Positions 21,433 to 59,459 of a stretch of 64,000 nucleotides of DNA are shown here, in pieces; position 1 is the first letter of the stretch; the number at the start of each line of letters is the position of its first letter. The position numbers and the translations under genes are program-made. The notes under the pieces were generated by a model. The model was given only the letters and a program-made list of their open reading frames with translations, was not told the DNA's origin and made no database searches. Source of the DNA: Eubacteriales bacterium (GTDB lineage Bacteria > Bacillota > Clostridia > Oscillospirales > Oscillospiraceae); the NCBI GenBank assembly GCA_030536515.1, contig JAUNPV010000003.1, positions 78,282 through 142,281 on the forward strand. Reading direction: 5' to 3'.

Positions 21433-23817
21433 ATGAGTTTTGTTAAGTATCGTTTGAAAGAGGTGGCCGCCGACTTTGGCGTTGCGCCCAAGGATGTTGC
21501 GGAGATCATCTCCAAGTTTTATGAAAAGCCCAAGTCCAACACCCAGGTGCTCACCGATGCCGAGCTGAACGCCGTGTTTGACTACATGACCCAGAAGAAC
21601 CAGATTTCTTCCATGGAGCAGGTTTTCGCCGCCAAGCCCACCGCCCCCAAGGCCGAGGCTCCCAAGGCGGAGGCCCCCAAGGCCGATGGGCCCAGGGCGG
21701 AGGCAAAGCCCCGTCCCCAGAATCAGCAGAGCCGTCCTCAGGGCCAGCAGGCCCCCCGGCCCCAGAATCCCCAGAGCCGCCCCCAAGGCCAGAGCGCCCA
21801 GAAGCAGCCCAAGGCCGCCGAGCCGGAGCGCAAGCGGGAGCGCCGGGTGGTGGATACCTCCGCCGTCCAGGTCAACGCCGCCCGGTTTGACGACCATGCC
21901 GATTCCCTGATTTCTGAGCGTGCCCAGAATTACCAGGGCGGCAAGCAGCGCATCGGCAACAAGAACAAGAACCAGCAGAAGGGCGGCGGCAAGTTCAAGG
22001 GCAGCAAGGCCCGCAGCGAGGAGCAGGAGAAAATGCGCCGCCTCCAGATGGAGGTGGCCCGGAAGGCCCCCCTGACGGTTAAGATTCCCGAGGAGATTAC
22101 CGTAGGCGAGCTGGCCTCCCGGATGAAGAAAACCGCCGGTGAGGTCATCAAGACCCTGATGAAAAACGGCGTCATGGCCGCCATCAACCAGACCATCGAC
22201 TTCGACACCGCTGAATTTGTGGCCACCGAAATGGGCTGCAAGGTGGAGAAAGAGGTCACCGTCACCATCGAGGAGCAGATTATCGACGACCATGTGGACA
22301 CCGCCGAGGAGCTGGTGACCCGGGCCCCCGTGGTGGTGGTCATGGGCCACGTGGACCACGGCAAGACCTCTACCCTGGATGCCATCCGCAAGACCTCCGT
22401 CACCGCCGGAGAGGCCGGAGGCATCACCCAGCACATTGGCGCCTATACTGTGGATGTAAACGGCAATATGGTCACCTTCCTGGATACCCCCGGCCACGCC
22501 GCCTTTACCTCCATGCGTGCCCGTGGCGCCAAGTCCACCGACATCGCCATTCTGGTGGTGGCCGCCGACGACGGCATCATGCCCCAGACCATCGAGTCCA
22601 TCAACCACGCCAAGGCCGCCGAGGTGCCCATCATCGTGGCCATCAACAAGATGGACAAGCCCACCGCCAACCCCGATAAAATCAAGGAGCAGCTGACCAA
22701 GTATGACCTGGTGCCCGAGGAATGGGGCGGCGATACCATCATCGTGCCCATCTCCGCCAAGACCGGCATGGGCCTGGACGAGCTGCTGGAAATGGTCATC
22801 CTCACCGCTGAGGTCCAGGAGCTGAAGGCCAACCCCAACCGCCGGGCCAAGGGCACCGTTATCGAGGCCCGCCTGGACAAGACCCGTGGCCCCGTGGCCA
22901 CCCTGCTGGTCCAGAACGGCACCCTGAAGCAGGGCGATATCGTCATTGCCGGCACCGCCGTGGGCCGTGTCCGGGTGATGACCAACGACAAGGGCCGCAC
23001 CGTCAAAACCGCCGGACCCAGCGTGCCTGTGGAGATTACCGGCCTGGCTGAGGTCCCCACCCCCGGCGACGAGTTCAACGCCGTCACCGACGAGCGCATG
23101 GCCCGGGAGTTGGTGGAGCAGCGCCGTCAGGCCGCCAAGGATGCCGCCGCCAACGCCATGCAGAAGGTCACCCTGGATAACCTCTTTGCAAGAATGCAGG
23201 AGGGCGAGATGAAGGAGCTGCCCCTGATTGTCAAGGCCGACGTTCAGGGCTCCGCCGAGGCCATCAAGGCCTCCCTGGAGAAGATTTCCAACGAGGAGGT
23301 CCGGGTCCGGGTTATCCACGCCGGTGTAGGCGCTATCAACGAAAGCGACATTCTGCTGGCCTCCACCTCCGGCGCTATCGTCATCGGCTTCAACGTCCGC
23401 CCCGACGCCGCCGCCCAGGCCTCCGGCCAGCGGGCCAACGTGGATATGCGGTTCTACCGGGTTATCTACGATGCCATCGACGAAATTGAGGCCGCCATGA
23501 AGGGTATGCTGGCGCCCAAGTTCGAGGAAGTGGTCATCGGCCACGCCGAGGTCCGCATGACCTACAAGGTCTCCGCCATCGGCACCATCGCCGGCTGCAT
23601 GGTCAAGGACGGCAAGGTCACCCGGGACGGCCAGGTCCGTATCCTCCGGGACAACATCGTCATTCACGAGGGCGAAATCGGCTCCTTGCAGCGCTTCAAG
23701 GATGCCGTCAAGGAGGTCACCGCCGGCTACGAATGCGGCATGAGCATCTCCAAGTACAACGACATCAAGGAAGGCGACATCTTCGAGTGCTTCACCATGC
23801 AGGAAGTAAAGCGCTAA
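21433..23817 (+). CDS. infB: Translation initiation factor IF-2
   Basis: [27 protein letters not shown]; Pro/Gln-rich N-terminal linker. Confidence 0.98.
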
Positions 23818-23827
23818 CGCGCTGGTG

Positions 23828-24000
23828 AAAATCCCCTTCGGGGCTTTCCACCAAAGGGCTTGCAGCCTGCTTAGCGCATCATTTTTGCGGTGCAAAAATG
23901 ATACACACGCAGTCTGAGCGGAATTTTTGGCCAGGTACACGCCCCGGCCAAAAATGATTGAATTTTATTTCGCCGCTGCGGCGGCGAAACTCTGCGAGGC
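23828..24000 (+). repeat. Multi-hairpin element of about 175 bp (family H), copy 1
   Basis: Aligns with 29008-29182 and, more loosely, with 59318-59417; stems show compensatory changes. Confidence 0.7.
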
Positions 24001-24149
24001 CCTGCAGCGGTGAACTGTGACGATGATGGTTCCGTTTTCCAGTTATTCAAAATGTGCCGCAGGCACACCATACTTCTTCACGTTTCACTATTCACACAAA
24101 CTTGCCGCGCCGCCTGTGCGGCGCGGTAACTTGTTTTGGAGGATGCAAT

Positions 24150-27599: not shown

Positions 27600-28970
27600 A
27601 TGTCGCTTCACGACGAGGAAATGAAAAAGCGCCGTGAAAAACGGGAGGCCCAGCGCCGCCGCCAGGAGGCGGAGCGCAGAAGGCTCAGACGCAGGCTGAT
27701 GCTTGCAATTTTGCTGCTGGCGGCAGTGGGCGTAGGCATCTGGCTGCTCACCCGGAACGCCGGTGTCCGGGGCGTCAGCGCCGCCAGTCCGGAGCAGACG
27801 GCCCCGGTGGAGACCCAGGCCCCCACCGAAAGCGAGCACCCCCTGGTCCAGGACCCCATCACCACCGTCCACCTCAAGGCCGCCGGGGACCTGGTGGTCA
27901 CCGATGACGTGATCCAGGCAGGCGTGGCGGCGAACGGCTATGATTTTTCCAAGGTGTTCCAGGACGTGGTGCCCACCCTGGCCGATGCGGACCTGACGGT
28001 GATGAACTTCGAGGGCAACGTCTACGGGGAGAATTACGGCACGGCCACCTCCTGCGCCCCACCCAGGCTTTTGCAGGACCTCCGCTCTGCGGGCGTGGAT
28101 ATGCTGCAGATGGCCAACTCCTGCGTCATCAACAACGGCCTCATCGGCATGGAGTCCACGCTGAACGCCATCCGGGATGCCGGCATGGAGCCTCTGGGAG
28201 CCTTTGCCAATGAAAAGGAGTTCAAAACCTCCAAGGGCTACACCATCACCGATGTCCGGGGGGTGAAGATTGCCTTCGTGGCCTTCACCAAGGGCATGGG
28301 CGGCCGGGGTATGCCCGCCGGCAAGGAGAATCTGGTGAACCTTTTGTACACCGACTACGCCACCTCCTACCAGGAGCTGGACAAGACCCGCATTGAGACC
28401 ATTCTGAAAAACGTGGCGGCGGAAAAGCCGGACCTGACCGTTGCCATGGTCCACTGGGGCAGTGAGTACAACGAGACCATCAGCGAAACCCAGGAGGCTC
28501 TGGTGACCATCCTGAAAAAGCAGGGGGTGGACGTGATTCTGGGAACCCATCCCCACACCTTCCAGACCATCGACTATGACCAGGAGGCGGGGACGCTGGT
28601 GGTGTATTCCCTGGGGGACTTCTTCAGCGATGCCCAGCAGGGCGCTACCAACTACTCCATCATCCTGGATGTGGAGATTACCAAGGACGCCACCACCGGC
28701 ACCACCAAGGTGACGGGCTACGACTACACCCCCATCTACACCGTCAAGGACACGGAGTGCGGCGGCTTCCAGAAGGGCCAGCGGCGGGTGGTCCGGGTGG
28801 ACAAGACCATCGAGGCCTTCGACAAAAACTTCCTGGACAAGGTGACCCCGGCCTCCAAAAGCGCCATGGAGTACGCCCTGACCCGCATCGAGGAGCGAAA
28901 GCTGACCCAGGAGCAGAAGGACGAGCTGGCCAAGCAGCAGGAAGAGCAGGAAAAACAGGCCAAAGGCTAG
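27600..28970 (+). CDS. CapA/PGA_cap-family metallophosphoesterase-fold membrane-anchored protein
   Basis: N-terminal basic region plus TM; AAGD, NFEG, MAN, VHWGSEY, GTHPH, YSLGDF. Confidence 0.85.
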   Translation: MSLHDEEMKKRREKREAQRRRQEAERRRLRRRLMLAILLLAAVGVGIWLLTRNAGVRGVSAASPEQTAPVETQAPTESEHPLVQDPITTVHLKAAGDLVVTDDVIQAGVAANGYDFSKVFQDVVPTLADADLTVMNFEGNVYGENYGTATSCAPPRLLQDLRSAGVDMLQMANSCVINNGLIGMESTLNAIRDAGMEPLGAFANEKEFKTSKGYTITDVRGVKIAFVAFTKGMGGRGMPAGKENLVNLLYTDYATSYQELDKTRIETILKNVAAEKPDLTVAMVHWGSEYNETISETQEALVTILKKQGVDVILGTHPHTFQTIDYDQEAGTLVVYSLGDFFSDAQQGATNYSIILDVEITKDATTGTTKVTGYDYTPIYTVKDTECGGFQKGQRRVVRVDKTIEAFDKNFLDKVTPASKSAMEYALTRIEERKLTQEQKDELAKQQEEQEKQAKG

Positions 28971-29007
28971 CAAAAAAGGAGGGCGAAGCCCTCCTTTTTA
29001 TCCGTCT

Positions 29008-29182
29008 AAAATCCCCTGCGGGGCTTTTAGACGGTGGGGTTGCAGTCTGATTTGCGCACGCCTTGTGCGCCGCAGGCGCACAAAGCGCACACAATCAGCC
29101 TGAGAGGTATTTTCGGCCAGGTACACGCCCTGGCCGAAAATTTTGAATTTTTTTGCCGCTGCGGCGGCAAACTCTGCGAGGC
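29008..29182 (+). repeat. Multi-hairpin element (family H), copy 2
   Basis: Shares GGCCAGGTACACGCCC and GCCGCTGCGGCGGC..AAACTCTGCGAGG with 23828-24000. Confidence 0.7.
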
Positions 29183-29349
29183 TTATTGGGCACGCTGTGG
29201 TTGGCCTGCCGCCAAGAGGTTCTTTTGCAGAATAAAGGAAAACGGCCCCCAATGACAGGACGGATTTCTTTCGATTTATCTTGCTATTTGCGAGGCAAAC
29301 GGCTATAATATAGTTTGTATTACTGGCTATGAACCGGGAGGAAGTCTCC

Positions 29350-59222: not shown

Positions 59223-59435
59223 ATGCTCCGCTGTGGAAAAATTCCTTACCCTATGGTATAATACTATTTCTTAATAAAAATCTTTAAGAAGATTTTTATT
59301 AGCCAGCCTGGCGGCTGGGGGGCTTTCCGCCGGAATCAGAAAAACAAGTTTTTCTGATTCCCACGCAACGCCCCAAAGAAATGTATTGACTTCATTTTTA
59401 ATCGCCTGCGGCGATTAGGCGGCTAAAAGCCGCCC

Positions 59436-59459
59436 AATAAAACGATAAATCGTTTTATT
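59436..59459. promoter_or_regulatory. Perfect 11-bp-arm palindrome just upstream of a TATAAT (59469-59474)
   Basis: AATAAAACGAT-AA-ATCGTTTTATT. Confidence 0.55.

Follow-up and report, generated by a model that had tools for sequence, protein, structure and literature searches.

The structured element in the spacer between infB and rbfA is very probably a gene-less MITE of ~203 bp that has the same 15-bp ends as an insertion sequence of the IS1182 family, is moved in trans and inserts at hairpins. That we are dealing with a new, abundant IS1182-type MITE and not with a new RNA is well supported. Two copies of the element lie in the window, by which we mean the whole 64,000-nucleotide stretch of DNA that was analysed (G000:C27:78282-142281); the genome searched is the 48-contig, 2.63-Mb metagenome assembly from which this stretch comes. 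The element contains no gene, and the only IS1182-type transposase homologue of the genome lies elsewhere, on contig C43. Its interior is a chain of four hairpins with a small tail stem.

The two copies in the window

From 24 copies of this genome we built a covariance model (R1), which detects exactly two copies in the window, A (188 bits) and B (207 bits), the features of which are collected in Table 1. An earlier, sequence-only reading of the window had reported that 23828-24000 and 29008-29182 align end to end, and our alignment agrees with this: copies A and B (23815-24010 and 28995-29195) align over their entire length with 83% column identity, and the stem differences that the reading listed are borne out. 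The same reading had also named 59318-59417 as a diverged relative and had counted three copies in total. Neither statement survived a search of the genome. No R1 match was obtained at 59318-59417 even at E <= 10, and we rejected this site as a third copy, the only sequence in common with the element being words of 11-13 bases; it is part of a separate, hairpin-rich repeat of ~141 bp (window 59300-59440) that has ~10 genome copies of 85-89% identity. The count of three is at the same time a large underestimate, as BLAST and iterated nhmmer searches found ~26 full-length copies, 6 long variants of ~290-310 bp and some fragments in the genome to which the window belongs.

Table 1. Features of the two window copies and of the adjoining terminator-like hairpin, in window coordinates
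Feature	Position	Strand	Remarks
MITE copy A	23818..24015	+	infB-rbfA spacer; covariance model match 188 bits, model positions 1-203
Copy A hairpin 1	23823..23853	+	inner part of left inverted repeat, TGGTGAAAA, pairs with TTTCCACCA; the pairing encloses a small CCCC/GGGG hairpin
Copy A hairpin 2	23878..23902	+	most variable stem of the family
Copy A hairpin 3	23923..23955	+	apical sequence GGTACACGCCC conserved; loop kept across the genus
Copy A hairpin 4	23968..23989	+	TTTCGCCGC / GCGGCGAAA
Copy A conserved tail	23987..24000	+	AAACTCTGCGAGGC; invariant in 24/24 same-genome copies
MITE copy B	28998..29197	+	covariance model match 207 bits; four hairpins all present
Copy B hairpins	29002-29034, ~29060-29086, 29109-29141, 29152-29171	+	from the alignment
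Copy B tail	29169-29182	+	from the alignment
Copy B right inverted-repeat remnant	29183-29197	+	11/15 positions as in the TTTTTTGACACGCTG variant
Terminator-like hairpin of upstream 456-aa gene	28972..28999	+	abuts copy B

Alignment with the other copies shows an intact core and degenerate ends in copy A; the limit of the core is probably at 24004, the right inverted repeat having probably suffered an internal deletion. Folded as single-stranded DNA, copy A reaches -50.4 kcal/mol as opposed to -34.3 +/- 3.4 kcal/mol for 200 shuffled sequences (z = -4.8), a better fold than that of any of the 200 shuffles. The terminal inverted repeats, degenerate in copy A, are partially preserved in copy B, and no target duplication was found at either copy. 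The hairpin that adjoins copy B, downstream of the 456-aa gene (ORF 27600..28970), is of the kind next to which this MITE family inserts. Copies A and B are diverged members of the family with decayed ends.

Both copies were probably inserted in this lineage only, and no copy was found at the same loci in the related species checked. Copy A sits inside the infB-rbfA operon in sense orientation, and no R1 match was found at the infB loci of the 13 closest relatives; 11 relatives allowed a reconstruction of the infB-rbfA spacer, which measures 50-416 bp in them and usually contains one conserved hairpin. For the locus of copy B, 15 relatives gave no convincing match, and no copy at the loci of A and B was found to be common to two species among the relatives checked. 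The infB-rbfA spacer of this genome is itself a pile-up of repeats: a ~50-bp repeat with ~20 partial genome copies (24045-24095) lies between copy A and the ancestral hairpin of the spacer, and this GC-rich hairpin (24102-24129, GCCGCGCCGC...GCGGCGCGG), found downstream of copy A and of the further short repeat, recurs in most of the relatives examined. It scans as terminator-like and may serve as an internal attenuator or as a processing site of the operon.

A family of copies with the ends of an IS1182-family insertion sequence

Within the genome, a subfamily of 12 copies is 98-100% identical, which indicates a recent burst. Long variants (G000:C17:337948-338258, C38:20637-20946, C38:27261-27571, C43:97825-98135 and C35:26643-26952) carry two nested inserts, one of 63 bp after hairpin 2 and one of 45 bp in the loop of hairpin 3, and variants with both inserts have moved as single units; ~10 other places in the genome also contain the first half of the 63-bp insert. 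Outside this genome, R1 matches were obtained for 42 of the 150 genomes sampled from the genus (19 of 34 if only those of high quality are counted), with up to at least 16 copies per genome among the matches listed. A pattern composed of the hairpin-3 loop and the tail was found in at least 119 stretches, many of them from unnamed Oscillospiraceae, and the titles of the matches include Faecousia, Candidatus Scatomorpha, Limivicinus, Oscillibacter, Papillibacter cinnamivorans DSM 12816 and Brotocaccenecus cirricatena. The four-hairpin architecture is kept in the copies from these genera.

The ends of the 12-copy subfamily, CAGyCTGTCGAAAAA ... TTTTTCGAyGCCCTG, form an imperfect 15-bp inverted repeat, and in 38 of 70 copies 10-12 of 15 positions agree when the left end is compared with the reverse-complemented right end. 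When the subfamily was aligned together with its flanks, the host DNA next to the element proved to be duplicated on both sides. We compiled 68 distinct insertion sites from this genome and its relatives. At 36 of these sites there is an anchored duplication of 17-40 bp (no more than 2 mismatches), and all 36 duplicated segments fold as hairpins; shorter repeats of 4-10 bp occur at 11 sites, and no duplication was detectable at the remaining 21, both window copies among them. Recently inserted copies have a terminator hairpin on one side and its duplicate on the other. Downstream of the conserved gene next to the recent copy at C25:19387, a single terminator hairpin without the element is seen in nine relatives, where this genome has the element with a copy of the hairpin on either side. 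Gene context was assigned with a rough codon-usage model, as longest-ORF calling was unreliable (it chose an antisense ORF over infB). By this model, placement is mostly after the 3' ends of genes (10 convergent, 20 tandem and 1 divergent context), and the tandem contexts, with 13 sense and 7 antisense copies, reveal no orientation bias.

Some sites depart from the simple pattern. At G000:C38:20637-20946 and at L069 (G002:C32) the duplicated hairpins differ only by an inverted loop (GTCA vs TGAC and TTTTT vs AAAAA, respectively), which suggests either that the palindrome was rearranged internally or that the duplication was inverted and not direct. A MITE copy (G000:C5:47602-47804) and an insertion sequence (L097, G089:C85) each have a different hairpin on either side and no duplication, as would fit recombination between copies or a repair step in which one hairpin was lost.

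When the terminal repeat was sought outside the known copies, the search led to an insertion sequence of 1588 bp (G000:C43:83116-84703), the ends of which are CTGCCTGTCGAAAAA and TTTCTCGACAAACTG and the flanks of which are a duplicated 24-bp hairpin. It has 17 of 19 terminal bases in common with the MITE. Its ORF matches the NCBIfam model NF033551 (IS1182 family) with 307.8 bits (cut-off 270) and, in addition, Pfam DDE_Tnp_1_6, DDE_Tnp_1 and DUF772. This is the only IS1182-type transposase gene of the assembly and it contains a single in-frame TAG at codon 71 (L031:601-603, G000:C43), so that no intact IS1182-type transposase was found in the genome's own 48 contigs, metagenome assemblies of this kind tending to lose insertion sequences; uninterrupted gene matches are present in some relatives, e.g. 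G024 and G166. IS1182-type transposase genes were found in 20 of the 150 sampled genomes of the genus. The full insertion sequences of relatives are 1.51-1.60 kb long and carry the inverted-repeat variants of the MITE subfamilies, e.g. TTTTTTGACAAGCTG, and three of them are surrounded by clear duplicated hairpins of 25-33 bp. In the MITE as in the insertion sequence, the A-run of the inverted repeat contains the start of a hairpin. What the two have in common is confined to ~20-25 bp per end, and no similarity was detected between their interiors. The MITE is present in 8 of the 20 genomes with the insertion sequence and in 34 of the 130 without it, a weak co-occurrence that is uninformative because metagenome assemblies lose insertion sequences. 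One further full insertion sequence of the IS1182 type (L100, G134:C51, ~1178-2691) has at least 45 bp of host DNA repeated on its two sides, the orientation being inverted and not direct, and was apparently inserted at the centre of a long palindrome.

Because the 15-bp terminal inverted repeats of the MITE are also those of the insertion sequence, we infer that the DDE transposase of the IS1182-family insertion sequence moves the MITE in trans. Points against the main reading are the interrupted transposase gene, the dissimilar interiors, the weak co-occurrence and the 21 sites at which no duplication was detectable. Both MITE and insertion sequence insert at the foot of palindromic hairpins, mostly terminators. 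In the mechanism that we propose, the transposase would join each 3' end of the element to the target at points that are staggered, and where the points of strand transfer flank the palindrome, gap repair would duplicate the whole hairpin; the duplication is 17-40 bp long at hairpin sites and 4-10 bp at non-hairpin sites. So long and variable a stagger suggests that the transposase recognises its target in the form of an extruded hairpin or cruciform, in which the two feet are close together. Duplication of the whole palindrome would correspond to pathway b of the model put forward for IS1272 (PMC5678879).

Internal hairpins and alternative readings

The sequence-only reading had also proposed that the stems covary through compensatory base changes, and with many more copies the proposal held. 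In 70 distinct copies from ~35 species aligned to the model, 97.1% of stem cells are paired. Changes on both sides were seen in 32 of 51 pairs (shuffles 15.2 +/- 1.9; 9-18 when partners were slid), and 281 cells are double-changed as compared to 56 in shuffles. Both sides are changed in 9 of 12 pairs of helix 1, in 9 of 9 pairs of helix 3 (hairpin 2 of copy A) and in 6 of 8 pairs of helix 5 (hairpin 4). A structure-blind alignment of 62 copies (MAFFT followed by RNAalifold) arrived at these hairpins too, 37 of the 48 pairs being compensated, and in this run the 3-bp mini-stem of the tail (CTC/GAG, replaced by TTC/GAA in 8 copies) covaries as well, pair 190/198 being scored as covarying. Intermediates changed on one side only are almost absent. 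The idea that the two terminal repeats covary in a three-way manner with the 3' arm of hairpin 1 was also considered and was dropped, as the repeat variants mix freely among the 70 copies, 10 of which combine a left GTCGAAA with a right GTCAAAA.

Among the 3338 stem cells there are 18 G:T, 24 A:C and 71 other mismatches. As G:T is no commoner than A:C, the constraint is equal on both strands, a pattern to be expected of hairpins or palindromes in DNA and not seen in typical structured RNAs. The unpaired segments GGTACACGCCC, AAACTCTGCGAGGC and GCAGyCTG are nearly invariant within the genus. In diverged copies, A and B included, the unpaired ends (CAG... and the right inverted repeat) are decayed and the core hairpins and motifs are intact. 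This conservation of the interior, which extends to loops and linkers and across genera, is greater than a passive MITE needs.

The reading made from the window had ascribed the covariation to selection on structure, as in a multicopy structured ncRNA or a mobile element of single-stranded DNA. Its general part can be kept, in that complementarity is conserved and the element is mobile, but neither of the two mechanisms named for it fits. That the family is an ncRNA, either an sRNA gene or a cis-acting element, with a transcript on which selection would act to maintain the stems, is very improbable: the strong covariation in four stems, the conserved loops and linkers, an architecture kept across genera and the sense orientation of copy A within the infB-rbfA operon would all suit it, but there is no excess of G:T over A:C (18 vs 24 of 3338 cells), as would be expected of an RNA, and no orientation bias (13 sense vs 7 antisense copies). 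When Rfam 15 was searched, two tRNAs were all that the window gave at gathering scores, and copy A had no credible match even at E <= 10; no promoter-like or terminator-like site was found inside the element on either strand. The terminator copies that bracket recently inserted copies, and the lack of copies at the same loci in the relatives checked, likewise speak against an RNA. We consider it still more improbable that the element moves as single-stranded DNA in the manner of REP/RAYT or IS200/IS605 elements, the hairpins of which are recognised by an HUH tyrosine transposase. Strict Watson-Crick complementarity is expected of such DNA hairpins, but the recent copies show both terminal inverted repeats of 15 bp and duplicated targets, neither of which HUH-type elements make, and their ends match those of a DDE-type insertion sequence with the same insertion signature. 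There is no GTAG foot either, which the alignment of same-genome copies bears out as the earlier reading had said. A Cas1- or casposase-like integrase, the CRISPR repeat duplication of which looks alike, was set aside in view of the insertion sequence that has matching ends and the same signature.

The remaining alternatives accept the MITE and differ on what maintains its interior. The compensatory changes might be mutational and not selected, template switching during replication copying one arm onto the other; the near absence of one-sided intermediates, the constraint that is equal on both strands and the two duplication pairs that differ only by an inverted loop, by which events within palindromes do occur here, are in keeping with this. 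Template switching would not, however, conserve the unpaired GGTACACGCCC, AAACTCTGCGAGGC and GCAGyCTG across genera, and the lengths and positions of the stems are conserved while their sequences change, and we regard this origin of the changes as unlikely. A takeover of the interior by the host, for instance as a protein-binding, nucleoid or transcription-insulating module that is selected in place, appears less likely again. It would agree with the motifs conserved across Oscillospiraceae and with the diverged copies, A and B included, that keep the core while their unpaired ends decay, but no same-locus copy common to different species was found, and divergence between subfamily lineages that are still mobile explains the same pattern. 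We favour an IS1182-type MITE in which the Watson-Crick compensation of the interior would reflect a constraint at the level of DNA, acting through lineages still able to transpose, and not RNA. A more specific and rather speculative proposal is that the four-hairpin interior is a module of folded DNA (or RNA) that IS1182-type transposition needs, e.g. if the donor must be extruded as hairpins or a cruciform like the target, or one that the host keeps for its own use. If true, it would explain the constant loops and linkers and the covarying stems across Oscillospiraceae genera as well as a core that outlasts the ends.

Relation to known elements

The MITE explains a large share of the intergenic hairpin repeats in these uncultured gut Oscillospiraceae, and it should serve as a warning to annotators that strong covariation of stems in a multicopy element need not denote an RNA gene. 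It also provides many natural cases of whole-hairpin duplication by IS1182-type elements, for which hairpin deletion is reported in staphylococci, and such duplication supports the view that the transposase reads the shape of DNA and not its sequence. Since cultured carriers are available (Faecousia intestinalis, Papillibacter cinnamivorans and Brotocaccenecus cirricatena), the need for the internal hairpins in transposition is testable.

Several families of small bacterial repeats resemble the element in part. Correia elements of Neisseria, ERIC, RUP and BOX are small, abundant, intergenic and gene-less, with inverted ends and conserved secondary structure; their duplications are short and fixed, such as TA, they are not known to target or duplicate whole hairpins, and for several of them an effect at the RNA level is documented. 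The MITE described here is likewise small, gene-less and structured. With REP sequences and REPINs it has in common that abundant intergenic hairpin repeats carry compensated stems. REPINs lack DDE-type terminal inverted repeats, produce no target duplication, possess a GTAG-type foot and need an HUH enzyme (RAYT), whereas the present family has inverted repeats, duplications and a DDE partner.

Hairpin targeting by the IS1182 family and duplication of a whole hairpin by an insertion sequence are both already published. According to the account in PMC3317919, IS1630 of Mycoplasma fermentans (IS30 family) duplicates a whole inverted repeat (Calcutt et al. 1999, J Bacteriol 181:7597), with flanking duplications of 16-26 bp; it differs from the MITE in that it is an autonomous insertion sequence with an IS30-family transposase. 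The closest counterparts are IS1272 and the composite TnSha1, members of the IS1182 family in staphylococci that target terminator hairpins and remove them (PMC4923244, PMC5678879); pathway b in Fig. 13 of PMC5678879 is the branch of the model that predicts that an entire stem-loop is duplicated. Like them, the MITE has a partner transposase of the IS1182 family (NF033551) and inserts at the foot of the stem of hairpins that have no sequence consensus and are mostly terminators. Unlike IS1272 and TnSha1, in which the hairpin is reported to be deleted or replaced and not duplicated, it has duplicated the whole hairpin at 36 of 68 sites, and it is a 203-bp derivative without a gene, the structured interior of which is unrelated to the insertion sequence.
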